Shown here in pieces: positions 1,235-38,585 of a stretch of 64,000 nucleotides of DNA (position 1 is the first letter of the stretch; each line of letters begins with the position of its first letter). The notes beneath the pieces are model-generated. The model ran no database searches, was not told the DNA's origin, and was given only the letters and a program-made list of their open reading frames with translations. Source of the DNA: Candidatus Hecatellales archaeon (lineage in GTDB: Archaea; Thermoproteota; Bathyarchaeia; Hecatellales; Hecatellaceae); the NCBI GenBank assembly GCA_003661965.1, contig QMXD01000002.1:2377-66376 (forward strand), given 5' to 3'. Both the position numbers and the translations under genes were made by a program.

Positions 1235-1238
1235 AAAG

Positions 1239-2126
1239 ATGAAAGCCTATGCATATTTTCTTGGCTGTATAACACCAAACAGGTATCCAGGAATAGAATA
1301 TTCAACAATAGAGGTTTTTAGACTTTTTGGGGTTGAGCTTAAACCTATGCATGGAACCTCATGTTGTCCAGCTCCAGGTGTTTTCGGCTCTTTTGACCTA
1401 TGGAATTGGCTTGTTTTAGCTGCTAGAAACCTAAGTATAGCTGAGGATATGGGTTTAGATGTAACGGTTACATGTAACGGTTGTTATGCGACACTTCAAG
1501 AAGCAAACCATATGCTTCAACATGATGTGGGGTTAAAAGAGAAGGTTAATAGTCTTCTTGGGAAGGTGAATAGGGTTTATAGGGGGACTATTAAGGTTAT
1601 CCATGTTACAGAAATTTTGTATGATGTTGTTGGGTTGGAAACGATAAAAGATAGGGTTGTAAAACCTTTAAAGGATGTTAGGGTTGCAGTCCACTATGGA
1701 TGCCATTTTCTTAAGCCAAGCGATATTAGAGGTCATGGTTCACCTGAAAACCCAACCATGCTTGATGAGCTTGTTGAGGTTTTAGGTGCTGAAAGTGTGG
1801 AATATAAGGATAAGCTTATGTGTTGTGGTGCTGGTGGGGGTGTAAGAGCTGGAAGACCTGAAACAGCCCTAGAAATAACAAGGGAAAAGGTTGAGGCTAT
1901 GCTTGATGCTGGAGCTGATTGTGTTGTAACACCATGTGCCTTCTGCCATCTACAGTTTGATAGGGGGCAGGCGGAACTAACAGCAAAAACGAAACATGAA
2001 TACGATTTACCGGTTGTTTTTATAACCCAGCTTTTAGGTTTGGCTTTAGGTTTACCCCCTGAAAGGCTTGGACTACTAAAAAATGAGACTAGGTCTGATA
2101 GGCTTCTAGGTAAGCTTAACTTTTAG
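1239..2126 (+). CDS. hdrB: Heterodisulfide reductase subunit B (HdrB), two CCG domains
   Basis: CCG-domain motifs (SCCPAPG...; MCCGAGGGVRAGRPE; PCAFCHLQFD). An RBS-like aggagc lies upstream of the ATG at 1239. The track ORF from 1221 overlaps hdrC, so the ATG at 1239 is preferred. Confidence 0.8.
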   Translation: MKAYAYFLGCITPNRYPGIEYSTIEVFRLFGVELKPMHGTSCCPAPGVFGSFDLWNWLVLAARNLSIAEDMGLDVTVTCNGCYATLQEANHMLQHDVGLKEKVNSLLGKVNRVYRGTIKVIHVTEILYDVVGLETIKDRVVKPLKDVRVAVHYGCHFLKPSDIRGHGSPENPTMLDELVEVLGAESVEYKDKLMCCGAGGGVRAGRPETALEITREKVEAMLDAGADCVVTPCAFCHLQFDRGQAELTAKTKHEYDLPVVFITQLLGLALGLPPERLGLLKNETRSDRLLGKLNF

Positions 2127-21856: not shown

Positions 21857-23137
21857 CTACATAAAATCCTGAAGACTTAAACTTTTCTTGGATGGTTTTC
21901 CAGTTTCCTCTTTTTTCTCGTCTATGATGAGTTTCCCATATACACCATCATATCCAGGTTCAACCTTCACCCTATCCTCCCTAACATCCACTATCACCTT
22001 TGCAGCCTCCTTCCCAACAACCTCAGCAATCTCCTCAAACCTTGCCTCAAGCAAAACCTTATACTCGTTCCCAAACCTGTTTACAAGCCTACCGTAAACC
22101 TCCCATGTTTTCCTGTTTGATGGGCTTCCAAAACCAAAAACCCATGCTAAAATCTCAGATAAAGGTAAAAGATGAACATAGCCAGGTCTGTTTGGAGGTT
22201 TATATCCTTCAGGTCTGTCAGCCAACTCTTCAACCCTCTCCTCAACACCCTTAGTCATCCTCCTACCACATACGGGGCATATTCCCCCATGTTTTATAGC
22301 CTCAGATGCTGGCATAGAAACACCACAACCTCTATGTCCAGTCCAATGGTATTTTCCGTAGGCAGGGTTTACCTCTACCGTAAAAAGAATTTTTTCAGGG
22401 TTTCCAGACCTAACAGCCTCAACAATCTCACGATAACTAAAATTTTTAACCTCTAAAACGTTTGCCTCCCTTCCAAGTCTCCAAGGCCAATAGCTATGGC
22501 TGTCGGAGTTTGATATTATTGTTACTTTGTCAAGTTCACTGATTCTCCAGTTCATTGGTGGGTCTGAGGATAGTCCTGTTTCTAAAGCAAAAATTTTGTT
22601 TGATTTGTCTTGGTAGCATTCTTTTAGGCTGTTAAATCCGCTAAAGGCTCCAAAAAGACTAAACCATGGTGTCCATGCGTGGGCTGGGAAAACAACGTTT
22701 TCTTTTGACACTTCTAGGGTTACTTCAACAAGTTCTGGTGGTGTTGTTTTTAGGGTTGGTCTTCCATCAGCCTCTAAAGAGCCGTATTTGGCTAAAACCT
22801 CGTTAACCTGTTCTGCTGTTTCAAGGGATGGTGTCCATATTACATGGTGTATTCTTTTTGTTTTTCCCTCATAGTCAAAAACGGTGTTGACCTCTGTTGT
22901 TACCATAAAAAAGACTTTAGAATCTTTTTGGTTTCTGACAACATATAATCCACTATCGTTAAACTCAGCAAGGTTTTCTTTTAACTCTTTAAGCCATAAC
23001 GGATGGGTAAAATCTCCTGTTCCAACAACGTTTAACCCTTTAATTTGGGCGTAGTAGGCTATGTTTTTAACGTTCATATCTTGGCTTGTAGCCCTACTAT
23101 ACCTTGAATGGAGGTGGGCATCCATAAAAACCCTCAA
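21857..23137 (-). CDS. endoQ: Endonuclease Q (PHP-domain plus zinc-finger DNA repair nuclease for deaminated bases)
   Basis: N-terminal PHP motifs (MDAHLHSRYSRATS; GLNVVGTGDFTHPLW; HHVIW; PAHAWTPWFSLFG; SNSDSHS), a CPVCG zinc finger, and a length of ~426 aa, all matching EndoQ architecture. Confidence 0.65.
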   Translation of the reverse strand: MRVFMDAHLHSRYSRATSQDMNVKNIAYYAQIKGLNVVGTGDFTHPLWLKELKENLAEFNDSGLYVVRNQKDSKVFFMVTTEVNTVFDYEGKTKRIHHVIWTPSLETAEQVNEVLAKYGSLEADGRPTLKTTPPELVEVTLEVSKENVVFPAHAWTPWFSLFGAFSGFNSLKECYQDKSNKIFALETGLSSDPPMNWRISELDKVTIISNSDSHSYWPWRLGREANVLEVKNFSYREIVEAVRSGNPEKILFTVEVNPAYGKYHWTGHRGCGVSMPASEAIKHGGICPVCGRRMTKGVEERVEELADRPEGYKPPNRPGYVHLLPLSEILAWVFGFGSPSNRKTWEVYGRLVNRFGNEYKVLLEARFEEIAEVVGKEAAKVIVDVREDRVKVEPGYDGVYGKLIIDEKKEETGKPSKKSLSLQDFM

Positions 23138-23179
23138 ACCTAAAACACCAAACCCAAGAAAAAAGGGAGAATAATAAAG

Positions 23180-24505
23180 CTAAAAATTTTTAGATTCTTC
23201 GTCTACCAAAACCAAAATTAAAACTAAACCCACAAAAGAAACAGCAAGAATAAGGTTTAGGGTAACATCTGTTAAAGCTAAAGGTTGAATTTGGCTGGAG
23301 GTAACCTCAAACTCCACAGTTTTAACATTCTCCCCATTCACCTTAAAAATAAAGGTGTAGTGTCCAGGCCTAAGAAACCCTAAATTATAGGTTGAGGATT
23401 CTACAGTTATTACTTGGATTGCTGGTCCCTCCCAAGCTTCAACTTTTGCATCCACACTAAACACAGAGTTTTCTTTTTTAAGTGTTCCCCAGTCAACATG
23501 AAAATCTCCACTTTTAAAGGTTATGGAAACCTTAGCTAGGGTTTCTCCGTTTTTGGTTTTTTCTATGGATATTTTAACTTGTTCTGGGTTTGGCTTGTAT
23601 AGGGTCCATTTCCAAGCCTTAAGAAGGAGGTCTTCTTTGAGGTTTTGGAGGCTTCCCCTATAGGTGATAACTGAAAACCTTATGGTTTGGTTTGGCTGGA
23701 ATAGGTTTGCTATTCTTTTGTCTGCTTCAGCAACAACTTTTAACGGTATAATTTTGTTTCTCATTACCACCATGTAGTTGTTGGCTGGTAGGGTTGCTGG
23801 AAACCTTATCCTATCACTTGTTAAAAGAAAAACTGTGATGCTGGTTTTTCCTTTGGCTATAGAGGAAATTTTTAGTGGGAAGTATGCCTCCTTAGAGTCG
23901 AATTTATACATTAAAGGTTTAACTGTTTTAATGTTTTCTCCAACGTTTACAAGGTCAAAAACAAAATATTCAAATCCACGTTTAGTGTAGTCGTTAACAA
24001 GGCTTAAAACCTTCTCAAGGTTTGGTTTTGGAAGCCCATGTTTCCCTGTAAAATCTTCAACCCAACGAATAAAGTCTTTTGTATCCTTAACCCTAACCAC
24101 CGTAACATCATGAACACCTATCTTCTCATGGAAAACTACCTCTACACCCTCAACACCAGCTAAACCCTTCCCATAAACAACCCTTTTAGACCTAAAATAC
24201 CTTAACAAAACATCAAAAGACTTGGGTGAAGCCTCCTCAATTTCTGGTTTTGAGGGTAGGGGGAGAACCTCTAAAACAGGAGTTTTACCCTTAAGGGTTT
24301 TTAAATCAACCGAAAGAATAAGAATCTCCTTTTCACCGTTCCATGCAACTATAGCTTTTTGGCTTGGCTCATAGATTGGTATGTCACCTATTGGAATAAC
24401 ACCCTTATCAGCATAGGCTAAAAAACATGTTTGGCTAAGCAGGAAAACTGAAAATATTAACGTTAGTAGAAGCTTTTTTGTCAAGCTTTTCAACCAAGTT
24501 AACAT
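23180..24505 (-). CDS. Exported hypothetical protein with N-terminal signal peptide and C-terminal transmembrane anchor
   Basis: N-terminus LTLIFSVFLLSQTCFLAYA (signal-like) and a C-terminal hydrophobic helix LNLILAVSFVGLVLILVLV followed by DEESKNF. No catalytic motif was recognised. Confidence 0.5.
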   Translation of the reverse strand: MLTWLKSLTKKLLLTLIFSVFLLSQTCFLAYADKGVIPIGDIPIYEPSQKAIVAWNGEKEILILSVDLKTLKGKTPVLEVLPLPSKPEIEEASPKSFDVLLRYFRSKRVVYGKGLAGVEGVEVVFHEKIGVHDVTVVRVKDTKDFIRWVEDFTGKHGLPKPNLEKVLSLVNDYTKRGFEYFVFDLVNVGENIKTVKPLMYKFDSKEAYFPLKISSIAKGKTSITVFLLTSDRIRFPATLPANNYMVVMRNKIIPLKVVAEADKRIANLFQPNQTIRFSVITYRGSLQNLKEDLLLKAWKWTLYKPNPEQVKISIEKTKNGETLAKVSITFKSGDFHVDWGTLKKENSVFSVDAKVEAWEGPAIQVITVESSTYNLGFLRPGHYTFIFKVNGENVKTVEFEVTSSQIQPLALTDVTLNLILAVSFVGLVLILVLVDEESKNF

Positions 24506-24585: not shown

Positions 24586-25734
24586 TTGGTAAATACTTAT
24601 GCTAGGTTATTAAAGATGGGTTTAGGAGACTATGTAAAAGAAATTAAAAACTGTCTTGAATGTTACGCATGCCACGAGGTTTGTCCAACCTATCTAACAA
24701 CAAAAAACGATTTTCACTCTCCAACCTCAAGACTTAAAGTTGCTAAAACCATTTTAGCGGATGAACCAATCCAAGAATGGATGGTTGAATCATCCTATTT
24801 TTGCACCCAGTGTGAGGCATGTGAAAAGGTTTGCCCCTCAAACATAAGAATTTCAAAGATTGTTGGTGAAGTTAGGGTTGAGCTTTTTAAGAGGGGTTTT
24901 GCACCTCTTGAACCCCATAAAAAAATTTTGGATTCTATCCTAAAAAACCAAAATTCTGTTGGTGGGGCTCCTGAAAAAAGGTGGGATTGGCTTCCTGAAC
25001 AATACAAGCAAAAGTTTGAAAACAACTCTTCAACCATGTTTTTTGTTGGCTGTCTTGCATCCTATCTAACAAGGGATGCTGCAATTTCAACTGTAAAGGT
25101 TTTAGAAAAGGTTGGAGTTGATTTTAGGCTTGTTAAAGATGAGGGTTGTTGTGGTGCTCCCTTCATAAACTTTGGTGACATGGAGAACGCTGAAAAAACC
25201 GTTAAAGAAAAACTTGACCTATTCGATGATTTAGGAGTAAAAAGGGTTTTGGTTATTTGTGCTGGATGCTACCGAACCTTTAAAGAATTCTACCCAAAAA
25301 TTTCTGGAGAAAACAAGGTTAAGTTTCAGCATGTGGTTGAGGTTTTAGATGAGCTTTATAGGAATGGAAAACTAAAAATGGGTAAATCTAAAAAAACCTT
25401 TATCTACCATGACCCATGCCATCTTGGAAGACTTTTTGGGGTTTATGAGGAGCCTAGAAGACTTTTAAAGGCTGCTGGAAACCTTGTAGAATTCGACGAG
25501 AATAGGGAAAACGTTTTTTGTTGTGGCGCAGATTCGGGTGTTAGAGCAGCCTTTAAAGACCCCTCAGTCCAAATGGCTCTAAAAAGGGTTAATGAAGCAT
25601 CAAAAAAGGCTGACATTTTAACAACAGCATGCTCCTTTTGTCTTTTCAACCTTAACTATGCATCAATAAAGTCTGGTAGAAAGCTTCCGGTAAAATATTT
25701 GACAGAAATAGTTTTGGAGGCTTTGGAAGACTAA
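24586..25734 (+). CDS. HdrD/GlcF-like iron-sulfur protein (two 4Fe-4S ferredoxin motifs plus two CCG domains)
   Basis: CLECYACHEVCP and CTQCEACEKVCP, then CCG motifs (EGCCGAPF; VFCCGADSGVRAAF; CSFCLFNL). The start is TTG at 24586, with an alternative ATG at 24616. Confidence 0.75.
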   Translation: MVNTYARLLKMGLGDYVKEIKNCLECYACHEVCPTYLTTKNDFHSPTSRLKVAKTILADEPIQEWMVESSYFCTQCEACEKVCPSNIRISKIVGEVRVELFKRGFAPLEPHKKILDSILKNQNSVGGAPEKRWDWLPEQYKQKFENNSSTMFFVGCLASYLTRDAAISTVKVLEKVGVDFRLVKDEGCCGAPFINFGDMENAEKTVKEKLDLFDDLGVKRVLVICAGCYRTFKEFYPKISGENKVKFQHVVEVLDELYRNGKLKMGKSKKTFIYHDPCHLGRLFGVYEEPRRLLKAAGNLVEFDENRENVFCCGADSGVRAAFKDPSVQMALKRVNEASKKADILTTACSFCLFNLNYASIKSGRKLPVKYLTEIVLEALED

Positions 25735-26720
25735 TGGTGGAAAATCTGATTGAAGACAAAAAACTTTTAAAATCAAAGTTTCTTGGAGCTTTGGTTGGAA
25801 CCGCTGTAGGTGACGCTTTAGGTATGCCTTTTGAAGGCTACGACCCAAAATATATCCAGTCAAGGTATGGAGAAGTTAAAGATATGTTTCCCGGTAAACT
25901 TCCAGCAGGCTCCTATACCGATGATACTGAAATGATGATTGGGGTTGCGGAGTCGCTTATTGAAAATTGTGGGTTTAACGGTGAACACATGGCTAAAACA
26001 TTCATAAAAAATTTTAATTCAAGTAGAGGTTATGGTTTTGGTGTTCAAATAGTTTTAAAGCTAATATCAGAAGGGGAATCATGGGAAAACGCTGCTGAAA
26101 ATCTTTTTGGCGGTATAGGCTCCTATGGGAATGGGGCTGCTATGAGGATTGCACCAGTAAGCATATTCTACTACGACAATTTTGATGAGCTTATAAAAAT
26201 AGCTGTTAAAACCGCAAAAATAACCCATACCCATCCACTTGGGGTTGAAGGTGCTGTTCTTCAAGCCTACGCTATAGCTTTAGCCTTAAACCAGCATCCA
26301 CTAAAAAACCTAAACATAGAAAACTTTTTACAATCCCTCCAAAACCTTGCCAAAAGCGAAACCTACAAAAACAAAATCAAAAAAATAAAAATTTTACTCA
26401 ACAAAAAAACAAGCAAATGGGAAGTTATTTTTTTGCTTGGAAACGGAATAGAAGCCTTTAACTCCGTCCCAACAGCAATCTACTCCTTCCTAGCCAACCA
26501 TAAAAACTTTGAGGATGCCGTAACCTACGCAGTAAACCTAGGTGTAGACACAGACACCATAGGAGCCATGACAGGAGCAATAAGCGGAGCCTACCACGGA
26601 TTTGAAGCCATACCAAAAAAATGGCTAAACAAACTTGAAAACCTAAACCACATAAAAAACCTAGCCGAAAAAATATGGGAAATCAAAACAACCCAAACAC
26701 AGCCTAAACCAAACATATAA
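25734..26720 (+). CDS. ADP-ribosylglycohydrolase family protein (DraG/ARH-like)
   Basis: LGALVGTAVGDALGMPFEG, SYTDDTEMM and LGVDTDTIGAMTGAISGAYHG are the ARH metal-binding motifs. Its ATG overlaps the upstream stop (TAATG). Confidence 0.75.
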   Translation: MVENLIEDKKLLKSKFLGALVGTAVGDALGMPFEGYDPKYIQSRYGEVKDMFPGKLPAGSYTDDTEMMIGVAESLIENCGFNGEHMAKTFIKNFNSSRGYGFGVQIVLKLISEGESWENAAENLFGGIGSYGNGAAMRIAPVSIFYYDNFDELIKIAVKTAKITHTHPLGVEGAVLQAYAIALALNQHPLKNLNIENFLQSLQNLAKSETYKNKIKKIKILLNKKTSKWEVIFLLGNGIEAFNSVPTAIYSFLANHKNFEDAVTYAVNLGVDTDTIGAMTGAISGAYHGFEAIPKKWLNKLENLNHIKNLAEKIWEIKTTQTQPKPNI

Positions 26721-26749: not shown

Positions 26750-26829
26750 TTATCCTAGCCTCCCACAGGATAAAACATCAAACCAACAAAAGTTTTAAGT
26801 TTTGGCTTCAGAAATTTAAAATATAAAAT

Positions 26830-27255
26830 TTGTTTGGTTTGGCTGATGTGGAAAGGTGTGTTTTGGTGGTTTTAGAGGACCGAAAACTCCTAGAGAAAAT
26901 TAAGGAGCTTAGCGGTATAGATCTTAGTGTTTGTATGCAGTGTGGTATATGTTCTGGAAGCTGTCCTGCAGTCGACCAGATGGATATAACACCAAGAATG
27001 ATGGTTAGACTTATCCAGCTTGGACGTGAAAAAGAGGTTTTAGATTCTAAGGCTATGTGGATTTGTCTTTCATGTTTTACCTGTTATGCTCGTTGTCCAC
27101 GTGAAATAGATTTTGCTAAGCTTGGTGAAGCCTTAAGACAGGTAAGACTTAGAAAAGGTTTAGACTATATCCGTATCTCAGAAATCCCTGAAGAAGAGTT
27201 TAAAAAGCTTCCTCAAATAGCCCTTGTAAGCTGTTTCCGTAAATTCACCTCCTAA
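26830..27255 (+). CDS. hdrC: HdrC-like 4Fe-4S ferredoxin (second copy)
   Basis: CMQCGICSGSCP and CLSCFTCYARCP motifs. The start is a TTG. Confidence 0.75.
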   Translation: MFGLADVERCVLVVLEDRKLLEKIKELSGIDLSVCMQCGICSGSCPAVDQMDITPRMMVRLIQLGREKEVLDSKAMWICLSCFTCYARCPREIDFAKLGEALRQVRLRKGLDYIRISEIPEEEFKKLPQIALVSCFRKFTS

Positions 27256-27258
27256 AGG

Positions 27259-28164
27259 GTGAAAACTTTGAAAATTCCATATTATCCAGGTTGCACCCTA
27301 AAAACCTCAGCCAAAAACCTTGAGGTTTCAGCCTTAGAGTCTGCTAAGGTTTTAGGTGTAGAGCTTGTTGAACTTCCAAGATGGAATTGTTGTGGTGCTG
27401 TTTTTTCTATGGCTACCGACGACCTAATACATCAGCTTGCCCCGATAAGAAACCTTATAAGAGTTCAGGAGATGAATGAGAAGGGTATTGTTGAAAACGA
27501 GAATCGTGTTGTGGTTTTATGTTCAATGTGTTTTAACACCCTAAAAAGAAGTAACATGTTTGTAAAGGAGGATAAGGAGAGACTAGAAAAAATTAACAAT
27601 TTTTTGTCTGATACCGAGGAGCCATATCAGGGAAACATTGAGGTTATCCACTTTTTGGAGCTTTTAAAAAACGATATAGGATTTGATAGGGTGGCTGAAA
27701 AGGTAAAAAAACCTTTAAAAAACCTTAAGATTGCACCGTATTATGGCTGTCTACTTTTAAGACCTGAGGAAATCGCCATAGACAACCCTCAATCACCAAA
27801 AGTTCTTGAGAATCTTCTTGAGGCTTTAGGTGCTACTGTTGTTGACACCCAGTTTAAAACTAGGTGTTGTGGAAGCTATCAGACGGTTAACCGTAAAGAG
27901 CTTGTTGCTGAACTTGCATATGACATCCTTAACCAAGTAAAGATTAGTGGTGCTGATTGTGTTGTTACAAGCTGTCCTCTTTGCATGTTTAATCTTGACA
28001 CTAGACAGGAGGAGGTTAAAAAGGCTCACCCAGAATTTAAAACAATTCCAGTTTTCTACTTTACCCAGCTTATGGCTTTAGCCTTTGATTTAGGAGAAAG
28101 CTTTTATAGGTTTGATTTAAACTATGTGAATCCGAAACCGTTACTATCTGAAAAAATCTTTTAA
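27259..28164 (+). CDS. hdrB: HdrB-like CCG-domain protein (second copy)
   Basis: YPGCTL...NCCGAVFS...; RCCGSYQ; SCPLCMFNLD. The start is GTG at 27259, 4 bp after the hdrC2 stop. Confidence 0.8.
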   Translation: MKTLKIPYYPGCTLKTSAKNLEVSALESAKVLGVELVELPRWNCCGAVFSMATDDLIHQLAPIRNLIRVQEMNEKGIVENENRVVVLCSMCFNTLKRSNMFVKEDKERLEKINNFLSDTEEPYQGNIEVIHFLELLKNDIGFDRVAEKVKKPLKNLKIAPYYGCLLLRPEEIAIDNPQSPKVLENLLEALGATVVDTQFKTRCCGSYQTVNRKELVAELAYDILNQVKISGADCVVTSCPLCMFNLDTRQEEVKKAHPEFKTIPVFYFTQLMALAFDLGESFYRFDLNYVNPKPLLSEKIF

Positions 28165-28215
28165 AGACCTAGAAAATGTTAAGGTTAGTTTGGAAATAGC
28201 CTTTTATGTGTTAGG

Positions 28216-29013
28216 ATGGGTGGGAAGTTGGTGGAAAAAACTCTGGAAGAAAAAACCTCAGAAAGGTTCTTGGATATTATGGAGAGAATAAAAGAGTCAA
28301 ACAAGTCTGTCACCACTGGTATTGATGAGAAGGAGATTAAACATTGGGTAACAATCTACATTATGGGTAAAGCTTACAAGGTTCCAGCAGACCTAACACT
28401 TATGCAGGCAATGGAGTTTGCTGGTTACAGGTTTATTAGGGGAGCAGGTTGTAGAGCAGGATTTTGTGGGGCATGCGCAACAATCTACAGGAAAAAGGGT
28501 GAATATAAGCTTAGAACAGCCTTAGCATGTCAAACAAGAGTTGAGGATGGAATGTATCTTGTACAGATACCTTTTGCTCCAGCAGAAAAACCTGTTTACA
28601 ACCTTGACAAGGAGGGTGGGGGTTTAGATGTTGTTTTTAAACATTTTCCAGAGGTTGCTAGATGTGTCTCCTGTAACACATGCACCAAAGCATGCCCCCA
28701 AACCTTAGAAGTTATGGATTGTATTCAGGCAATTCTTCGTGGAGATTTTAAGTTTGCAGCTGAAAACTCCTTTGACTGTATTCAGTGTGGCTTATGTTCA
28801 ATTAGATGTCCAGCTGAAATAATTCATTATCACCTTTTCCAGATGGTTAGAAGAATTCATGGAAAGTTTGGTGTCCCCCCAGAACCAAACCTAGAAAAAA
28901 GAATTAAAGAGATAGAAGAGGGAAAGTTTAACGAAGAATTTGAAAAGCTCCTTAAACTCAGCCCAGAGGAGCTTAAAGAAATCTACAGGAAGAGAGAAAT
29001 AAAGCTTGACTAG
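28216..29013 (+). CDS. Succinate dehydrogenase/fumarate reductase iron-sulfur subunit-like protein (2Fe-2S plus two 4Fe-4S)
   Basis: 2Fe-2S segment CRAGFCGACA, 4Fe-4S CVSCNTCTKACP and CIQCGLCSIRCP. This is the SdhB/FrdB/TfrB N-domain architecture. Confidence 0.7.
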   Translation: MGGKLVEKTLEEKTSERFLDIMERIKESNKSVTTGIDEKEIKHWVTIYIMGKAYKVPADLTLMQAMEFAGYRFIRGAGCRAGFCGACATIYRKKGEYKLRTALACQTRVEDGMYLVQIPFAPAEKPVYNLDKEGGGLDVVFKHFPEVARCVSCNTCTKACPQTLEVMDCIQAILRGDFKFAAENSFDCIQCGLCSIRCPAEIIHYHLFQMVRRIHGKFGVPPEPNLEKRIKEIEEGKFNEEFEKLLKLSPEELKEIYRKREIKLD

Positions 29014-29033
29014 TCTTTTGGAGGTGAATAGTA

Positions 29034-30692
29034 ATGTCTGAACTAAAATTTATTGAAGGATACCCGGAATACATGTATAAGCTTATAGAAATTGTTCATG
29101 AGACAAGAAGCGCTAGACTAAAAGAAAAACCACGTTTTATGACTCTTGAGGAAAGAGAGGAAGTATTAAAAATACATCCAGACTATGCTCCTGGAGGTAA
29201 AAGAGAAATTAGGATTGGACCTAACAAGGGGGATGTAGCCCCAAACGAGGTTGTAGATCTGCTTGAAGCTTACCCCCTTATTAACCCAAACGAGATAGAC
29301 CTAAACAATGTTGACTATGAGCCTGACATACTTATAATAGGTGGAGGTTTAGCAGGCACAACAGCCGCCTTATGGGCTAACGATAACGGTATCCCTGCAG
29401 AAAATATTTTACTTGTTACAAAGCTTAGACATGGAGACTCTAACTCCGTTATGGCTCAGGGTGGAACTCAGGCTGCTGATAGACCTGACGACTCCCCAAT
29501 AATCCACTTTATCGATACGATGGGTGGAGGACATTTTGCTAATAAGCCTGATGTTGTTAGAGCTCTTGTTGAAGATGCTCCAAGCATTATTAAGTGGCTG
29601 GTTGAGCTTGGAGCGATGTTTGATAGGGATGAAAACGGATACTTCTTAGAGCTTTCTGGTGGAGGTGCTTCAAGAAGAAGAATGCATGCTGCTGGAGACT
29701 ATACAGGGCTTGAGGAGATGAGGGTTGTTAGAGATGAGTTTAGGAATAGGGGTATCCCATGTCTTGAGTTTAACCCTGCTATAGAGCTTCTTACGGATAA
29801 TGATGGAAAAGTTGTAGGTGCGGTTTTATGGAATATGGAAACAAGAGAGTATAAGATTGTTAAGGCTAAAGCAACAATACTTGCAACAGGAGGTTTTGGA
29901 AGACTCCATATTAGAGGTTTCCCAACAACAAACCATTATGGAGCCACGTGTGACGGTGTTGTTTTAGCCTACAGGGCTGGAGCAAAACTTAGAGATATGG
30001 ATACAGTCCAATACCATCCTACAGGTGCAGCCTACCCACAACAGATAATAGGTCTTCTTCTAACCGAAAAGTTAAGAACTGCTGGTGCTCAAGTTGTAAA
30101 CGTTGATGGTGAAGCTTTCGTTAACCCTCTTGAACCTAGGGATGTTGAAGCATCAGCAATCATAAGAGAATGCTACATAAGAAACAAGGGAATCACAACA
30201 CCAACAGGAATTAGAGGTGTATGGTTAGATATTCCAATGATAGACTTGGTTAGAGGTGAAGGCTCAATAAAAAAGCTTTTCCCAGGTATGGTTAGAATGT
30301 ATAACAGGTTTGGAATAAACATAACAAAAAATCCTGTGCTTGTTTTTCCAACACTCCACTACCAAAACGGTGGTGTTGAAACAGACCCCTACGGTCAAAC
30401 AAACGTTAAAGGGTTGTTTGTTGCTGGTGAAGTTTCCGGAGGAGTTCATGGGAAGAATAGGCTTATGGGAAACTCAACCCTAGACTGCTTGGTTTTTGGT
30501 AGGAGAGCAGGAATAACAGCTGCAAACTATGTTAAAAGCGGAGTAAAAATTGGTAAATTAACCCTAAACCATGTGGAAAAATATGTTAAAGAGCTTGAAA
30601 ACACTGGAATAAAAACGAGTAGAAGGTCTCCGATTCTCCTACCAGACTATAGGGGGAAGGCAGTTCTAGCCAGAATGATTGATGTCTTCTAG
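29034..30692 (+). CDS. Fumarate reductase/succinate dehydrogenase flavoprotein-like FAD-binding subunit with ~95-aa N-terminal extension
   Basis: ILIIGGGLAG (FAD Rossmann), RHGDSNSVMAQGG (His at the covalent-FAD position), HYQNGG and RLMGNSTLDCLVFGRRAG, which are SdhA/FrdA/NadB-family signatures. The N-terminal 95 aa precede the Rossmann motif and have no counterpart I recognise. Confidence 0.7.
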   Translation: MSELKFIEGYPEYMYKLIEIVHETRSARLKEKPRFMTLEEREEVLKIHPDYAPGGKREIRIGPNKGDVAPNEVVDLLEAYPLINPNEIDLNNVDYEPDILIIGGGLAGTTAALWANDNGIPAENILLVTKLRHGDSNSVMAQGGTQAADRPDDSPIIHFIDTMGGGHFANKPDVVRALVEDAPSIIKWLVELGAMFDRDENGYFLELSGGGASRRRMHAAGDYTGLEEMRVVRDEFRNRGIPCLEFNPAIELLTDNDGKVVGAVLWNMETREYKIVKAKATILATGGFGRLHIRGFPTTNHYGATCDGVVLAYRAGAKLRDMDTVQYHPTGAAYPQQIIGLLLTEKLRTAGAQVVNVDGEAFVNPLEPRDVEASAIIRECYIRNKGITTPTGIRGVWLDIPMIDLVRGEGSIKKLFPGMVRMYNRFGINITKNPVLVFPTLHYQNGGVETDPYGQTNVKGLFVAGEVSGGVHGKNRLMGNSTLDCLVFGRRAGITAANYVKSGVKIGKLTLNHVEKYVKELENTGIKTSRRSPILLPDYRGKAVLARMIDVF

Positions 30693-32387: not shown

Positions 32388-33212
32388 ATGGTGGGTATAA
32401 ATTTAGAGAGGATTGTTAAGAAGGTTGTAGAGGATTTAAAGGATAAAGGAAGGGTTGCTGTTGCTTTTTCTGGTGGTGTTGATTCTGCTGTTGTTACAGC
32501 TTTAGCCTATAAAGCCTTAGCTGAAAACTCTTTAGCTGTAACCATAGATTCTCCTTTACTTCCCTCAGGAGAACTTTTTGACGCAAAAAAGGTTGCGAAA
32601 AGTGTTGGAATAAAACATTTGGTTGTTAAGTTTGATGAGTTTAAGATTTCTAGATTTGCAGAAAACCCGTTAAACCGTTGTTACCTATGCAAAAAACACC
32701 GTTTTATTTTTTTAAAAAAGTTTTTGGAGAGGAGGGGGTTTAAAGTTATTGTTGATGGGACGAGTTTAAGCGACCTAAAAGAGTATCGTCCAGGGGTTTT
32801 TGCCTTAAAAGAGGAGGGAATTTATAGTCCACTTTTAAAGCATAAGATAGATAAAAATTTAGCAAGAAAAATTGCGGTTTTTCTTGGGCTTCCAAACCAT
32901 GATAAACCACCTAATACATGTTTAGCTACAAGGTTCCCCTACGGTTGTAAGTTAACCCCGGAAAAGCTAAAACGTGTGGATAAAGCTGAAAAATATCTTC
33001 GTGAACGTTTTGGTGTTAGGGTTGTTAGGGTTAGAGACCATGATGGGTTAGCAAGAATAGAGGTTGGAAAAAAGGATTTTAGGCTTCTTCTAAAAAGGGA
33101 AGCTATGGATAAAATTTCTGTTAGATTTAAAAAGCTTGGTTTTAGGTTTGTAACCTTAGACCTTGAAGGGTATAGGTTTGGAAGTTTTGATAGAGTAGCC
33201 TTAAAACGTTAA
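32388..33212 (+). CDS. PP-loop ATP pyrophosphatase, LarE/TIGR00268 family
   Basis: PP-loop VAFSGGVDSAV, conserved CYLCK, and a length of ~274 aa. Confidence 0.65.
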   Translation: MVGINLERIVKKVVEDLKDKGRVAVAFSGGVDSAVVTALAYKALAENSLAVTIDSPLLPSGELFDAKKVAKSVGIKHLVVKFDEFKISRFAENPLNRCYLCKKHRFIFLKKFLERRGFKVIVDGTSLSDLKEYRPGVFALKEEGIYSPLLKHKIDKNLARKIAVFLGLPNHDKPPNTCLATRFPYGCKLTPEKLKRVDKAEKYLRERFGVRVVRVRDHDGLARIEVGKKDFRLLLKREAMDKISVRFKKLGFRFVTLDLEGYRFGSFDRVALKR

Positions 33213-34345
33213 CCATAAGCTTTTATTATCTGGTAGGTTGTGGTTCTTTCTGCAGGAATTCTTCCAGCATCTTTAATTACTCTCACTATTTCTTCTACAG
33301 GAAGGTTTTGACCTGTGGTTGCCCCAGCAGCCCTAGAAATATTTTCCTCCATCAGAGTTCCACCAAAATCGTTTGCGCCAGCATTTAAGGCTACCTGAGC
33401 AAACTTTACCCCAAGCTTAACCCATGAAACCTGAATATTATCTATTAAACCGTTAAAAAATATTCTTGAAACAGCATACATTTTTAGGTCTTCAAAGCCT
33501 GTTGCTCCAGGTTTTGATTTCCCCTCCAAATAGATTGGGGTGTTCCAATGGACAAAGGTTAATGGGACAAACTCTGTAAAGCCATGTGTTTCCCTCTGGA
33601 TTTCTTTTAGCATGGATAGGTGGACTGCCCAATCTTCAGGTTTATCTATATGTCCATACATGATGGTTGAGGTTGAAGGTATACCAAGCCTATGTGCAGT
33701 TTTAACGGTTTCAACCCACTCTTTACAGGTTATCTTTTTAGGGCAAATTTCTCTTCTAACCTCATCAACCAAAATTTCAGCTGAGGTTCCAGGGATACTT
33801 CCAAGCCCAGCCTCCTTTAACATTTTTAAAGTTTCTTTTACGGTTAACCCTGCTTTACGGCTACCATAAACAATTTCCATGGGTGAAAATCCATGGATAT
33901 GGATTTTTGGTGTATAAGCCTTAATACTTTTAACGATTTCCTCGTAGTAGTAGGCGTCGATTTTTGGGTGAAGCCCCCCCTGAACACAAACCTCCGTTGC
34001 TCCCATAAGCCAAGCCTCTTTAGCCTTTAACCCTACCTCTTCAGGTTTTAGCAGGTAGGCTTCAGGGTCCCCTATTTTTTTGCTGAAAGCACAAAAGCCA
34101 CAGTCGTTATAGCATACGTTTGTAAAGTTTATGTTTCTGTTACAAACATAGGTAACTATGTCTCCAACCTTTTTACGTCTTAACCAGTCAGCAACAAGAA
34201 TTAAAGCTTGAAAATCCAGGTTTTTTGTTTTAAAAAGTTCTAGGGCTTCCCCTCTAGAAACCTCTTTTCCATCTAGGGCTTTATCTAAAATTTTTGCAAC
34301 TATAGGGTCTAAAGCCTTAAAAAACTCCTCTTTAAATGTCTCCAT
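33209..34345 (-). CDS. cofH: FO synthase subunit CofH (radical SAM; F420 chromophore biosynthesis)
   Basis: Radical-SAM motif NFTNVCYNDCGFCAF (the CofH/MqnC-like CxxxCxFCAF variant). It is adjacent to and overlapping cofG. Confidence 0.8.
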   Translation of the reverse strand: METFKEEFFKALDPIVAKILDKALDGKEVSRGEALELFKTKNLDFQALILVADWLRRKKVGDIVTYVCNRNINFTNVCYNDCGFCAFSKKIGDPEAYLLKPEEVGLKAKEAWLMGATEVCVQGGLHPKIDAYYYEEIVKSIKAYTPKIHIHGFSPMEIVYGSRKAGLTVKETLKMLKEAGLGSIPGTSAEILVDEVRREICPKKITCKEWVETVKTAHRLGIPSTSTIMYGHIDKPEDWAVHLSMLKEIQRETHGFTEFVPLTFVHWNTPIYLEGKSKPGATGFEDLKMYAVSRIFFNGLIDNIQVSWVKLGVKFAQVALNAGANDFGGTLMEENISRAAGATTGQNLPVEEIVRVIKDAGRIPAERTTTYQIIKAYG

Positions 34346-35579
34346 TTTTCACGTAACCTTCCGAATCAACCCTCTCAAAAACCGTATCCTTAAATTTTTC
34401 CGGAATAAACCAAGGTTTTTCTTTTACATATTCTGGGTAAATAGGTAAACGTTGCTTTAAAACAAACCCACAATTTTGGGTGATTTCTTTTAACTCGTAA
34501 AGTTTAGGCCAAGGTTTTTCTGGGTTTATATGGTCTGGGGTTATGGGTGAAACTCCACCCCAATCGTTTATTCCAGCGTAGGGGAGTAGGTCTATTATGG
34601 GTTTTGTTAGGTTTGGTGGAACCTGAATATTCATGTTTGAACCAAAAAATATTCTTGCAACAGCAACTGTTTTAAGTAGGGTAAACCATGAGGGTTCAGG
34701 ATGGTTTTCCATTGGTGTGCCTTTTTTAGCCATAAAAGGCTGAATAATAATTTCTTGTAGATGCTGATATTTTTCATGAATTTCTCTTAAAACGTTAAAA
34801 GAGTCTATAATTTCTTCTGGTGTTTCACCAATACCAAGCAGAATCCCTGTGGTAAAAGCTATATTTAGTTTTCCAGCATTCTCTATTGTTTCTAAACGTA
34901 TTTTTGGGTTTTTCCCAGGACTAAACTCATGCGGTCCACCTTTTTCGCAAAGTCTACTGCTAACGTTTTCAAGCATCAAGCCTAAGCTTAGGTTAACCTC
35001 TCTTAAATCCCTTAAATCTTCGATGGTTAAAACTCCAGGGTTGCTGTGGGGTAGGAGTCCTGTTTTTTCAAAAACGGTTTTACACATGTCGTATAGGTAT
35101 TCTATGGTTGTGTTGTAGCCTAACCTTTTTAGCTGGATTTTTGCTTCCCCGTATTTTTCTTCAGGTTTTTCTCCTAATGTGAAGAGAGCCTCGTTACATC
35201 CCATTTTTTTTCCTTTTTCAGCTATTTCTAAAACTTGTTTGGGGGTTAGAAAACCAGCCTTTTTGTTTGAGGGTTCTAGTCGAAAACCACAATATTTACA
35301 TGCGTTTCTACATAGGTTTGTTAACGGTATAAAAACCTTTTTTGAGAAACTTACTTTATCTTTTTTCCCCTTAAACTTTAGGAGGTTTGCTGTAGCCATT
35401 AAAACTGGTAGATGTTTAAAGTCTAGGTTTATTAGCTGATATGCCTCTTCAACGTTTATCTTTTTTCCTTCTAAGGCTTTAGCTAAAATTTCGCCTATGT
35501 TAGCTTCAAAGTCACCAATAGTCGGTTTTTGCTTGTCTTCTAAATCCTTTTTAAGGTTTTGAAGGTTTAGTTTTCCCAC
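34332..35579 (-). CDS. cofG: FO synthase subunit CofG (radical SAM)
   Basis: LTNLCRNACKYCGF, the CofG-type CxxxCxYC motif. The length is 415 aa. Confidence 0.8.
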   Translation of the reverse strand: MGKLNLQNLKKDLEDKQKPTIGDFEANIGEILAKALEGKKINVEEAYQLINLDFKHLPVLMATANLLKFKGKKDKVSFSKKVFIPLTNLCRNACKYCGFRLEPSNKKAGFLTPKQVLEIAEKGKKMGCNEALFTLGEKPEEKYGEAKIQLKRLGYNTTIEYLYDMCKTVFEKTGLLPHSNPGVLTIEDLRDLREVNLSLGLMLENVSSRLCEKGGPHEFSPGKNPKIRLETIENAGKLNIAFTTGILLGIGETPEEIIDSFNVLREIHEKYQHLQEIIIQPFMAKKGTPMENHPEPSWFTLLKTVAVARIFFGSNMNIQVPPNLTKPIIDLLPYAGINDWGGVSPITPDHINPEKPWPKLYELKEITQNCGFVLKQRLPIYPEYVKEKPWFIPEKFKDTVFERVDSEGYVKNGDI

Positions 35580-35580
35580 T

Positions 35581-36246
35581 TTAACCCTTCCTTTTATAGG
35601 TTAAAACTAGGTCTTCTCCAGCTTTTTCCACCTTAACAAGTTTAAGCTTTAATCCTTCTCTCACCCTTGTATATCCCTCACCCTCCACAAGTGTTATGGC
35701 TTTTTTTCCTCCAACAATAACTGGGGCTATTGCAACCCTAACCTCGTCAACAAGGTTTGCTTTAACCATACCCCAGTTAAGGTTTCCCCCACCCTCAACC
35801 ATAAGTGTTTTAATTTTCATTCTCCAAAGTTTTTTAAGTAAAAGTTTTAGGTTAACTTTTCTCCCTGAACCCGAAACAACAATTTTTGCTCCTGCCTTTT
35901 TTAGGGCTTTAAGCTTCTTTTTTGATGCTTTACTTGTAACAGCAATAACTATCCTATCGTTTCCCCTATACTTGAATATGTTTGCGTTTACAGGTGTTCT
36001 GGCTAAACTGTCAACAACTATTTTTGTTAAAGGGTTTTTACGTGGATGTTTTACCCTTAGCTTAGGATTATCGGTTAAAATTGTTCCTATACCAACCATT
36101 AAACCATCAACCTTTGCTCTAAGCCTATGAACCCTCCTCCAATCTTCCGGGCTTGAAATTTCAGAGTCACGAGTTTTTGTTGCAATTTTTCCGTCAAGAG
36201 TCATAGCAGCGTTTAAAATTACGTAGGGTCTATTTTCTATTTTCAA
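35581..36246 (-). CDS. 2,5-diamino-6-ribosylamino-4(3H)-pyrimidinone 5'-phosphate reductase (archaeal riboflavin pathway, DHFR-like)
   Basis: ILNAAMTLDGKIATKTRDSEISSPEDW...LMVGIGTILTDNPKLRV...GGGNLNW matches the RibD-C/ArfC-like reductase domain. Confidence 0.7.
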   Translation of the reverse strand: MKIENRPYVILNAAMTLDGKIATKTRDSEISSPEDWRRVHRLRAKVDGLMVGIGTILTDNPKLRVKHPRKNPLTKIVVDSLARTPVNANIFKYRGNDRIVIAVTSKASKKKLKALKKAGAKIVVSGSGRKVNLKLLLKKLWRMKIKTLMVEGGGNLNWGMVKANLVDEVRVAIAPVIVGGKKAITLVEGEGYTRVREGLKLKLVKVEKAGEDLVLTYKRKG

Positions 36247-36250
36247 AGTT

Positions 36251-37504
36251 TTATCCCTTCAACAATCCAACCCTATCTAAAACTTTTTTTCCCTCAACTA
36301 AAACTATTTTTATGTTTTCAGGTCTACCCCTAACTATCAAAGAGGCTAAAATGTTATGGGAAAAAGCCAAATTATCCATGGTAAAATCTATAAAGACTAG
36401 GTTTGCAAGTTTTCCCTCCTCTATTGAGCCTACCTTATCCTCTAAACCAAGAATTTTTGCACCGTTTATGGTTGCCATCCTAAAAATCTCCTCTAAAGGT
36501 ATGGGTGGAAAACTTTTTTCAAAAATGTTTGCAAGATTTAAAATGTAACTCATCTCCTCAAACATGTTTGGCTGATTAACCATAACATTATCAGAACCTA
36601 AAGCCACAGTAACCCCCATACCCAACATTTTTTTGATTGGTGGAAAACCTAAGCCAAGCTTAAGATTTGACCTAGGACAAACAACAACACCAACCTTCGC
36701 CTCCACAACCTCTTTAAGGTCTTCATCTGTTGGATGGGTAAGATGAACAAGAAAATCTGCCTTTAAAAGTTTAACAGCCCTATAAACCTCACTATAATCC
36801 GTTCTCCTCCTCGATATTTCTTGGGTGGCTGGATGTTCAGCAACATGGGTTGCTATAAGCTTTTTACCCTTAAAAATACTTGAAAACTGTTTAAGAGCCT
36901 TATCCGTATACTCGTTTGGACTGCTTAACCCAATTCCATCAGCAAACCTAAAAATCTTATAGGTTTCCTTTAAGGCTTGACCTGAAAGAGGCTTCAAATT
37001 TTTTTCTAGGTCTTCTTCATCCATATAGTAGTTTGGTCTACCCAGAATTATCGGCTGAATTCTAAAACCTTCTAAGGCTTCCCTTAAAACTTTAATACCT
37101 TTAACCCCACCCTCCCTAAAATCAGCAAAAGTTGTTATCCCTAAGGCTAACATATCTCTTAGGGTCGACCTTATTCCACGAATAAGAGTTTTCCTGCTGG
37201 TTTTTCTAAGAAACCTATGTTTTAAACCGTTTGGAGGTTTCATAAGGCTTAAAAGATCCTGTCCAAAACCAAGCTCTTTTGCAGCGGAATCTCCAAGATG
37301 AATATGTGTGTTAACAAATCCTGGTATAACAAGAAAACCTTTTCCATCTATTCTTTTTGATGTTGAACCTTTAAACCTTCCAGAACCAACCTCAACAATT
37401 TTTTCTCCATCAACAGCAACATACCCATTCCTAATAATCTTCATTTCTCTACCTGCAACAACCATTATCCTCTCAAAAACCCTCATTCCAACTTCAAAAC
37501 ACAA
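36251..37504 (-). CDS. Amidohydrolase-family metal-dependent hydrolase/deaminase
   Basis: HxH metal motif in GFVNTHIHLGDS and later His/Asp positions. The length is ~400 aa. The true start is probably an internal Met (MRVFERI or MVVAGREMKII). Confidence 0.6.
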   Translation of the reverse strand: MCFEVGMRVFERIMVVAGREMKIIRNGYVAVDGEKIVEVGSGRFKGSTSKRIDGKGFLVIPGFVNTHIHLGDSAAKELGFGQDLLSLMKPPNGLKHRFLRKTSRKTLIRGIRSTLRDMLALGITTFADFREGGVKGIKVLREALEGFRIQPIILGRPNYYMDEEDLEKNLKPLSGQALKETYKIFRFADGIGLSSPNEYTDKALKQFSSIFKGKKLIATHVAEHPATQEISRRRTDYSEVYRAVKLLKADFLVHLTHPTDEDLKEVVEAKVGVVVCPRSNLKLGLGFPPIKKMLGMGVTVALGSDNVMVNQPNMFEEMSYILNLANIFEKSFPPIPLEEIFRMATINGAKILGLEDKVGSIEEGKLANLVFIDFTMDNLAFSHNILASLIVRGRPENIKIVLVEGKKVLDRVGLLKG

Positions 37505-37547
37505 AAAAATCTACCTGTTTAAACCTTTATTTTCCCCTATAAACTAA

Positions 37548-38585
<1,038 letters not shown>

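Follow-up and report, generated by a model that had tools for sequence, protein, structure and literature searches.

A four-gene HdrC-HdrB-FeS-flavoprotein cluster of Bathyarchaeia as a candidate anchor-free fumarate reductase fed through Hdr-type subunits

Four consecutive genes in a 64,000-nucleotide stretch of contig QMXD01000002.1 from a Candidatus Hecatellales archaeon of the Bathyarchaeia (the whole stretch is hereafter called the window) raise the question of what reaction is carried out by an enzyme that combines subunits of the heterodisulfide reductase type with subunits resembling those of succinate dehydrogenase and fumarate reductase, and from where its electrons might come. The genes occupy positions 26830-30692 and encode an HdrC-like ferredoxin (HdrC2), an HdrB-like protein (HdrB2), an Fe-S protein (the FeS subunit) and a flavoprotein (Table 1). 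On balance, comparison of their sequences and gene neighborhoods inclines us to regard them as a cytoplasmic, anchor-free fumarate reductase that would serve the tricarboxylic acid (TCA) cycle in its reductive branch and be fed with electrons via the Hdr-type subunits. A first-pass annotation, made from the sequence without database searches, had described four same-strand genes with their cofactor motifs and gaps of 3 to 51 base pairs (bp); scans for open reading frames (ORFs), Pfam domains and motifs confirmed this layout, the successive gaps measuring 3, 51 and 20 bp. The chain encoded by these motifs has been stated as nine Fe-S clusters plus flavin adenine dinucleotide (FAD), with per-protein counts of two clusters in HdrC2, two in HdrB2 and three in the FeS subunit. 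No transmembrane segment was found in any of the four proteins by a 19-residue Kyte-Doolittle hydropathy scan (the maximum in HdrB2 is 1.14), and none offers a candidate amphipathic anchor. Nor does any of the four pass the cutoff of a curated NCBIfam model, and the cluster is therefore neither TfrAB, a type-E succinate dehydrogenase (Sdh), NadB nor a canonical HdrBC. The first-pass distinction from TfrAB and type-E Sdh thus holds, with 316 of 718 bits for TfrA, 29-45 of 385 for TfrB and 175 of 500 for SdhE.

The flavoprotein would be the catalytic subunit, and its residues speak most directly to the substrate. Pfam recognizes FAD_binding_2 (PF00890) at residues 98-481 with 239 bits. The best NCBIfam match is the TfrA model NF004900 (316 bits, cutoff 718; model positions 6-426 of 546), followed by the NadB model TIGR00551 (290 bits, cutoff 452.75) and the SdhA/FrdA models, none of which exceeds 283 bits although their cutoffs start at 541 (567 for the top-scoring one). 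The relation to TfrA was judged by these model scores; the alignment comprised the window protein, four family members that are 47-74% identical to it, and E. coli SdhA, FrdA and NadB, to which its identity is 33, 33 and 34%. In this alignment, the flavoprotein residues H328, T344, E345, R348, H442 and R476 are invariant and equivalent to FrdA H232, T244, E245, R287, H355 and R390, and the protein thus has the C4-dicarboxylate site with its proton-donating arginine. The histidine that carries FAD covalently (FrdA H44) is Asn137 in the window protein and Asn throughout the family alignment, and the FAD is predicted to be bound non-covalently. FrdA/SdhA enzymes deprived of the covalent FAD bond no longer oxidize succinate but still reduce fumarate; with non-covalent FAD predicted, the reductive direction would be favored here. 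The position of E. coli NadB Glu121, which we take to be a glutamate specific to L-aspartate oxidase, is occupied by Gly. The first-pass annotation held that the substrate could not be read from the sequence. We depart from that position, since the conserved fumarate-site residues, together with the sucCD, kor, aclAB and aconitase genes that neighbor the relatives described below, point to fumarate.

The architecture of the flavoprotein is nevertheless its own when set against SdhA, FrdA and NadB. It lacks their entire C-terminal helical domain (about 150 residues) and carries an N-terminal extension of about 95 residues that they do not have. When this extension was searched against 1.84 billion cluster representatives, 291 matches were obtained at E <= 1e-3, placed only at the N-terminus of members or fragments of the flavoprotein family. 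Two apparent fusion proteins from that search, P0176 and P0180, were rejected as they look like frameshifted or chimeric gene calls. When the AlphaFold2 model (predicted local distance difference test, pLDDT, 72; predicted template modeling score, pTM, 0.77) was used as a Foldseek query, FrdA and SdhA (E about 1e-24) and the flavocytochrome c3 fumarate reductases came out on top, and NadB ranked about 47th. Database matches to the flavoprotein number more than 8000 at E <= 1e-20, a set in which, past the 120 listed, other superfamily members may be mixed in; those best 120 share 73-92% identity, and the named ones among them are assigned to Bathyarchaeota, Thermoplasmatota, KSB1, Aerophobetes, WOR-3, Aminicenantes and Deltaproteobacteria, among others, all uncultured. 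The flavoproteins of Bathyarchaeia are unusually similar to those of many bacterial candidate phyla (73-78% identity), far above what vertical descent across domains would lead one to expect; both strong constraint and lateral transfer of the module are thereby implied.

The partner of the flavoprotein is less easily named. The FeS subunit contains a CxxxxCxxC...C motif of the [2Fe-2S] type and two CxxCxxCxxxCP motifs, is matched by the Pfam Fer2 and Fer4 dicluster families, and keeps all 12 of its 12 cluster cysteines among 15 diverse homologs. Its description as SdhB-like holds at the profile level, where hhalign aligned it with E. coli SdhB/FrdB at a probability of 95.3% and E 2.1e-8 over 149 columns with the three motifs in register. 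It does not hold in searches with hidden Markov models (HMMs) and of the PDB, which returned mainly generic ferredoxin-type matches (Wolinella FrdB appears at E about 2e-5), and the curated models score low (dhsB 25 bits, cutoff 88; TfrB 28.6 bits, cutoff 385). By sequence, then, the FeS subunit is a distant SdhB/FrdB homolog, visible as such by profile-profile comparison only, and no equivalog. Its third motif has four cysteines and is predicted to hold a second [4Fe-4S] cluster in place of the classical [3Fe-4S] cluster. The third cluster motif of type-E SdhB likewise has four cysteines.

Turning to the Hdr-type subunits, HdrC2 has two CxxCxxCxxxC motifs (CMQCGICSGSC and CLSCFTCYARC) with Pfam Fer4 dicluster matches, and scores 80 bits on the HdrC model TIGR03290 (cutoff 160) and 31 bits on the TfrB model. 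HdrB2 is matched twice by Pfam CCG, and both of its Cx(n)CCx(n)CxxC motifs are complete, with 10 cysteines conserved in 25 homologs; its CCG domains are predicted to bind two non-cubane [4Fe-4S] clusters. It reaches 183 bits on the HdrB model TIGR03288 (cutoff 345), 175 bits on the SdhE model NF042965 (cutoff 500) and 45 bits on the TfrB model (cutoff 385). The window also holds a first hdrC/hdrB pair at 650-2126 (+), which had been described as standing alone. It does so, with no hdrA beside it and a BirA-like gene divergent upstream, and it is canonical, with 202 bits on TIGR03290 and 420 bits on TIGR03288, both above cutoff. Because HdrC2 and HdrB2 fall below these cutoffs, whereas the first pair passes them, the two proteins are, on model scores, a divergent paralogous lineage and no duplicate heterodisulfide reductase. 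The BirA-like biotin ligase/repressor ORF opposite the first pair spans 1 to about 560 (-) and runs past the left edge of the window.

Gene neighborhoods of relatives place the cluster in a metabolic setting. Fifty-six loci were fetched and reduced to 39 distinct ones by de-replication; the window genes and the neighbors of one locus, L033, were mapped onto them by homology, and intervening genes were identified by Pfam scans (by precomputed Pfam for L033). The closest loci are labeled Bathyarchaeia, with 93% identity. Wherever upstream sequence was available, the FeS gene lies directly upstream of the flavoprotein gene (36 of 36 loci). About 17 of the 39 loci have hdrC-hdrB directly adjacent to this pair, mostly in the window order C-B-FeS-flavoprotein, so that the four-gene order of the window is found again in related genomes; in 4 more, hdrC-hdrB lies further off within the same cluster. 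Loci with adjacent hdrC-hdrB are labeled Bathyarchaeia, Methanobacteriota, Desulfurococcales, Thermoplasmata, Gemmatimonadota, Planctomycetota, Bipolaricaulota, Thermotogae and Spirochaetes. The association of the four genes, recurring in about 17 of 39 loci and at least 9 archaeal and bacterial groups, is not due to chance, and the operon structure is conserved across two domains of life.

What accompanies the four genes differs among relatives. Fourteen of the 39 loci contain hdrA, usually with mvhD, 17 contain genes for 2-oxoacid:ferredoxin oxidoreductase (kor), and 3 contain flx-like NADH-dehydrogenase genes (L033, L041 and L040, with flxDCBA-like genes); L002, which was collapsed into the L041 cluster on de-replication, has flxD, flxC and flxA homologs. 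Three loci, L011 (3548-5991), L027 (3516-5976) and L048, read hdrA-mvhD-[NiFe] small-[NiFe] large-hdrC-hdrB-FeS-flavoprotein, and by gene content each is a complete Mvh-Hdr-type operon that ends in a fumarate-reductase-like pair. These hydrogenase-bearing loci belong to a Desulfurococcales metagenome-assembled genome (MAG), a Thermotogae MAG and, for L048, a related metagenome. In L033 and L041 the order is hdrB-korDABG-hdrA-flxDCBA-FeS-flavoprotein, and in L005 it is FeS-flavoprotein-hdrC-hdrB-hdrA::nuoE-nuoF-like-nuoG-like; L005 and L051 share the order frdB-frdA-hdrC-hdrB with other genes downstream. The sequence flavoprotein-sucC-sucD-kor is found in L004, L055 and L018, and aclB-aclA-aconitase-FeS-flavoprotein in L016 (Nitrospirae). 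The flavoproteins of L033, L041, L004 and L055 are 71-76% identical to that of the window, and L033, L041, L005 and L051 are all among the relatives at 74-76% identity. A distant clade (45-55% flavoprotein identity; Magnetococcales, Nitrospirae and a deltaproteobacterium) has sucCD-kor or acl neighbors and no Hdr genes, which are absent within 8 kb in its members L016 (1818-9587) and L018 (8001-14183). Hdr genes are likewise missing beside the pair in the Stahlbacteria-like loci L039 (11756-14416), L038 and L052; in L039 it is followed by an NfnA-like gene (DHODB_Fe-S_bind/NAD_binding_1) and a GltD/NfnB-like gene and preceded, by Pfam, by an Mrp/NUBPL-type ATPase gene, with further ORFs that resemble hyp hydrogenase-maturation genes by eye. 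The L039 neighbors are a different input module, possibly linked to NAD(P)H. Across these loci, then, the catalytic pair is a TCA-linked unit combined with electron-input modules of several kinds. The HdrC-like subunit, which had first seemed to be an extra component, is indeed present, though it is no longer unexplained, as hdrA (with mvhD, hydrogenase or flx) belongs to the same cluster in many relatives.

We propose that electrons would pass from a donor module to HdrC2, then to HdrB2, the FeS subunit and FAD, and finally to fumarate. In relatives with hdrA, the donor would be HdrA with MvhD, together with either an Mvh-type [NiFe] hydrogenase or a Flx-type or NuoEF-like NADH dehydrogenase. 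In flavin-based electron bifurcation of this kind, fumarate (E0' about +30 mV) would take the place of the heterodisulfide as high-potential acceptor, and the low-potential electron would go to ferredoxin and on to 2-oxoglutarate synthase. In many relatives, the fumarate reductase probably forms the high-potential arm of an HdrA complex that bifurcates electrons. In the Bathyarchaeon studied here, the donor module, an HdrA core, may be encoded outside the window, or a thiol may be oxidized at HdrB2 or at the HdrD-like protein encoded upstream. More tentatively, and with rather less confidence, one may picture HdrC2-HdrB2-FeS-flavoprotein as a portable "fumarate arm" that docks on HdrA bifurcating cores of differing donors (Mvh hydrogenase, Flx or NuoEF-like NADH dehydrogenase, and others) and is encoded apart from its core in Bathyarchaeia. 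Such an arm would catalyze H2 (or NADH) + oxidized ferredoxin + fumarate -> reduced ferredoxin + succinate, and in Bathyarchaeia the HdrD-like and ADP-ribosylglycohydrolase genes could signify a second, thiol-dependent input or control by ADP-ribosylation.

Parts of this proposal have precedents in genomic work on bacteria. Rubin-Blum et al. (2019) described frdB-frdA-hdrC-hdrB-korDABC-hdrA-flxDCBA-aclBA in reductive TCA (rTCA) clusters of tubeworm symbionts and Thioflavicoccus, and proposed thiol-mediated or direct bifurcating electron delivery to a "thiol:fumarate reductase" and to 2-oxoglutarate synthase (PMC6315080). Mitchell et al. (2024) found the cluster of Endoriftia to be co-expressed, with the exception of tfrAB (PMC11636981). 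Koendjbiharie et al. (2020), with reference to their own 2019 preprint, described a "succinate operon" of fumarate reductase and Flx-Hdr in the succinate-producing Pseudoclostridium thermosuccinogenes (PMC7282089); database matches to the Eubacteriales-type homolog of L002 carried uncultured MAG names only, and the tie to P. thermosuccinogenes is indirect. The proposal of a bifurcation-coupled fumarate reductase is repeated in a 2026 survey (PMC13147460), a 2026 preprint gives structural precedent for HdrB-type non-cubane domains as pure electron relays (bioRxiv 10.64898/2026.08.18.745454), and for Culexarchaeia it was suggested that an HdrBC-hydrogenase complex is coupled to the oxidation of succinate (PMC9723716). 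The first-pass claim of a third arrangement, C-B-FeS-flavoprotein, is therefore sound as to its existence and needs correction as to its novelty, since it is neither unique to the window nor new: it was already published from genomes of tubeworm symbionts and as the operon composition of P. thermosuccinogenes (PMC6315080, PMC11636981, PMC7282089), and it is widespread in metagenomes of uncultured anaerobes. The window adds a member from Bathyarchaeia with no hdrA nearby.

Like the window, Ca. Endoriftia, the Escarpia symbiont, Thioflavicoccus mobilis and P. thermosuccinogenes have the FeS-flavoprotein pair adjoining hdrC-hdrB, and the role proposed for these systems, from genomic and transcriptomic descriptions only, is the same, namely to reduce fumarate within the rTCA or succinate pathway. 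The symbiont gene set frdB-frdA-hdrC-hdrB-korDABC-hdrA-flxDCBA is matched by L033 and L041, whereas the 64-kb window contains no hdrA, flx or kor, and its host is an archaeon with additional HdrD-like and ADP-ribosylglycohydrolase genes upstream. On gene order and domain content of homologous loci, the window cluster and the published bacterial loci may be of one family. Methanothermobacter TfrAB resembles the window system in being soluble and quinone-independent, with an SdhA-like flavoprotein and electron input through Fe-S and CCG domains. Its TfrB is, however, a single polypeptide ([2Fe-2S], two [4Fe-4S], two CCG), where the window has separate genes and an HdrC-like subunit, and relative to the TfrA model the window flavoprotein is short by about 120 C-terminal residues and longer by its N-terminal extension. 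Type-E SdhABEF of Sulfolobales and MFR SdhABE of Campylobacterota share the SdhA-like and SdhB-like pair, a CCG-domain subunit and the lack of a heme b anchor; unlike them, the window system lacks the covalent-FAD histidine and the C-terminal domain, has an HdrC-type ferredoxin as its fourth subunit and an FeS subunit that is SdhB-like only by profile-profile comparison, and its relatives are tied to hdrA rather than to respiratory genes. To MvhADG-HdrABC and FlxABCD-HdrABC it is linked by the cluster motifs of HdrC-HdrB and by relatives' operons with hdrA, mvhD, hydrogenase or flx, whereas its presumed acceptor is fumarate, via two added subunits, and not the heterodisulfide. Soluble, multi-subunit enzymes without an anchor are also known from Syntrophobacter fumaroxidans, whose four-gene FrdABEF (Sfum_4092-4095) is fumarate-induced (PMC5947623), and from Hydrogenobacter thermophilus, which has a five-subunit, NADH-dependent fumarate reductase (PMC13147460). 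Both were compared with the window by description only, and the NAD(P)H-binding subunit genes beside the L039-type pair call the NADH-dependent enzyme to mind. The genes of the H. thermophilus enzyme are said, after Miura et al. in 2008, to be dispersed over the genome and not clustered.

Several observations weigh against a fumarate reductase fed through Hdr-type subunits. In the literature searched, we found no biochemical characterization of this flavoprotein family, including bifurcating fumarate reduction, and no member that had been purified or assayed, so that all functional statements are inferred. Neither tblastn nor the Pfam scan of approximately 46 ORFs revealed genes for hdrA, mvh, flx, kor, sucCD or fumarase in the window, and the AlphaFold2 model of the flavoprotein is of only moderate confidence. 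Kinship with the published loci was judged by gene order and domain content, and in Endoriftia the differential expression seen for the other cluster genes is not shared by tfrAB (PMC11636981). Finally, none of the 10 cluster cysteines known from catalytic HdrB is missing in HdrB2, which makes a thiol/disulfide reaction at this subunit conceivable.

This last point leads to an alternative that we consider unlikely, a strict thiol:fumarate reductase in which HdrB2 or the HdrD-like protein oxidizes coenzyme M (CoM-SH) and coenzyme B (CoB-SH), or another dithiol of low molecular weight or on a protein, such as a DsrC-like one, electrons pass via the FeS subunit to FAD and fumarate, and a separate heterodisulfide reductase regenerates the thiols. 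TfrA is, after all, the top NCBIfam model for the flavoprotein, both CCG motifs of HdrB2 are complete, the window also contains the canonical hdrCB pair, and Rubin-Blum et al. list thiol mediation as one option (PMC6315080). The HdrD-like protein and the FeS gene together also supply the domain set of TfrB: the former combines two [4Fe-4S] motifs with two CCG domains and covers positions 129-486 of the TfrB model NF004898, its dicluster-plus-CCG half, with 232 bits (cutoff 385). The first-pass picture of a split TfrB needs amending in that its CCG half is matched better by this upstream gene than by hdrB2 (232 versus 45 bits). Against a strict thiol:fumarate reductase, the TfrA and TfrB cutoffs are both missed, the HdrD-like gene is confined to Bathyarchaeia loci, and the hdrA, hydrogenase and flx genes within the same operons favor direct wiring. 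The family is, moreover, common in bacteria (Thermotogae, Gemmatimonadota, Planctomycetota, Spirochaetes), groups that are not known to make CoM or CoB. An oxidative enzyme akin to type-E Sdh, passing electrons from succinate via the HdrB-like subunit to quinone, or to HdrA with confurcation to H2 or NADH, seems improbable to us. It could draw on the nearly equal scores of HdrB2 on SdhE and HdrB, on the four-cysteine third motif of the FeS subunit, as in type-E SdhB, and on the Culexarchaeia proposal (PMC9723716). Replacement of the covalent-FAD histidine by Asn family-wide, a change that disables succinate oxidation in characterized enzymes, argues against it, as do the lack of a membrane anchor or amphipathic candidate, the missed SdhE cutoff and the reductive-TCA markers beside the relatives (ATP-citrate lyase and 2-oxoacid:ferredoxin oxidoreductase).

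The remaining alternatives concern the flavoprotein itself. That it is a FrdA-fold enzyme for another C4/C5 dicarboxylate or enoate would fit with the failure to pass any curated family cutoff, the unusual architecture with its N-terminal extension and no C-terminal domain, and the lack of TCA genes found in the window. Six fumarate-site residues that are invariant across relatives at 47-74% identity, and the recurrence of sucCD, kor, acl and aconitase beside the pair in relatives, make this highly improbable. An L-aspartate oxidase (NadB) for NAD biosynthesis, the reading by which the first-pass annotation would have had the cluster fail, is hardly credible and effectively refuted. Its model score lies near that of TfrA (290 versus 316 bits), FAD is non-covalent there too, and a PP-loop ATPase with weak NAD_synthase similarity is encoded 1.7 kb downstream; yet 290 of 453 bits falls short of the cutoff, the specific Glu121 is replaced by Gly, an FeS partner is obligatory and Hdr subunits are present, NadB ranks low in the fold search, nadA/nadC were not found among the window ORFs scanned, and the PP-loop gene is not syntenic in relatives. 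The first-pass idea thus withstands the NadB test that it had set for itself.

The setting of the cluster within the window has features peculiar to Bathyarchaeia. In the loci of this group (the window, L001, L025, L030-32 and L035-37), the gene order is HdrD-like - ADP-ribosylglycohydrolase - hdrC - hdrB - FeS - flavoprotein, with an adenylate kinase gene convergent downstream. The HdrD-like and ADP-ribosylglycohydrolase genes lie upstream in all Bathyarchaeia relatives, and only there among the 39 distinct loci; the start of the latter overlaps the stop of the former. A DraG-like hydrolase (ADP-ribosylglycohydrolase) thereby adjoins a redox enzyme operon. No hdrA was found within 10 kb of the cluster in Bathyarchaeia loci, and tblastn with the L033 proteins detected no homolog of hdrA, flx, mvhD, kor or Mvh in the 64-kb window. 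The Pfam scan covered about 46 window ORFs, several others, mostly at 53.8-62.6 kb, being left unscanned, and revealed no sucCD, fumarase, nadA or nadC among those scanned.

Table 1. Features of the four-gene cluster and its upstream neighbors (positions in the window)
Feature	Coordinates	Strand	Basis
hdrC2 (HdrC-like ferredoxin subunit, two [4Fe-4S] motifs)	26830..27255	+	141 aa ORF, Pfam
hdrB2 (HdrB/SdhE-like subunit, two complete CCG domains)	27259..28164	+	301 aa ORF, Pfam
FeS subunit gene ([2Fe-2S] + two [4Fe-4S] motifs, distant SdhB/FrdB homolog)	28216..29013	+	265 aa, Pfam, hhalign
Flavoprotein gene (putatively catalytic, SdhA/FrdA/NadB superfamily)	29034..30692	+	552 aa, Pfam FAD_binding_2
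TATA-box-like element AAATTTAAAATATAAAAT, A/T-rich, directly 5' of hdrC2	26812..26829	+	noted by eye
HdrD-like / TfrB-C-terminal-like gene, possible accessory	24586..25734	+	Pfam, NCBIfam, synteny
ADP-ribosylglycohydrolase family gene, possible accessory	25734..26720	+	PF03747 259 bits, synteny

The TATA-like box directly ahead of hdrC2 is a possible archaeal promoter of the four-gene unit. Since the public gene call on the same contig gives a product of 129 aa, and in view of the position of this box, the true start of hdrC2 is probably the GTG at 26866. The start of hdrB2 may be the TTG at 27268, which is preceded by a Shine-Dalgarno-like AGGGTGA, and a strong motif, GGAGGTGA, lies 5' of the ATG of the flavoprotein gene. 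Downstream of the cluster, the PP-loop ATPase (32388-33212, +) has weak Pfam matches to NAD_synthase (36 bits) and Asn_synthase (32 bits). An identity as NadE is improbable, and the gene should not be taken for a neighbor from NAD biosynthesis; its synteny with the cluster is absent in relatives. A cofactor F420 island-like region follows at 33209-38585, with a CofH/CofG-like radical SAM pair (33209-35579, -), a RibD_C-domain reductase, an amidohydrolase and a luciferase-like F420-dependent-type oxidoreductase (37593-38585, +), and hints at both synthesis and use of F420 by the organism. Divergent upstream of the cluster, at 21857-24505 (-), are two genes in an order shared with L030. One encodes an MJ0043_C-domain protein, the other a DUF2330 protein of 441 aa for which hydrophobic segments are predicted at both termini. 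The window further encodes deoxyhypusine synthase and SRP54, and one relative has topoisomerase VI and a V-type ATPase subunit, all in keeping with an archaeal host.

To our knowledge, fumarate reduction is the sole step of the reductive TCA branch that lacks a known electron donor in most quinone-free anaerobes and non-methanogenic archaea. The recurrent operons with HdrA, hydrogenase or NADH dehydrogenase, and 2-oxoglutarate synthase suggest a fumarate reduction that conserves energy and generates reduced ferredoxin. For annotation, genes of the FeS, flavoprotein, hdrC2 and hdrB2 types should not be labeled succinate dehydrogenase, NadB or heterodisulfide reductase. Should bifurcation prove true, these enzymes would form a new class of flavin-based electron bifurcation and would change estimates of the energetics of carbon fixation in rTCA organisms. 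If the four subunits indeed act as a fumarate arm, they would supply quinone-free anaerobes with both succinate and the low-potential ferredoxin used by 2-oxoglutarate synthase.

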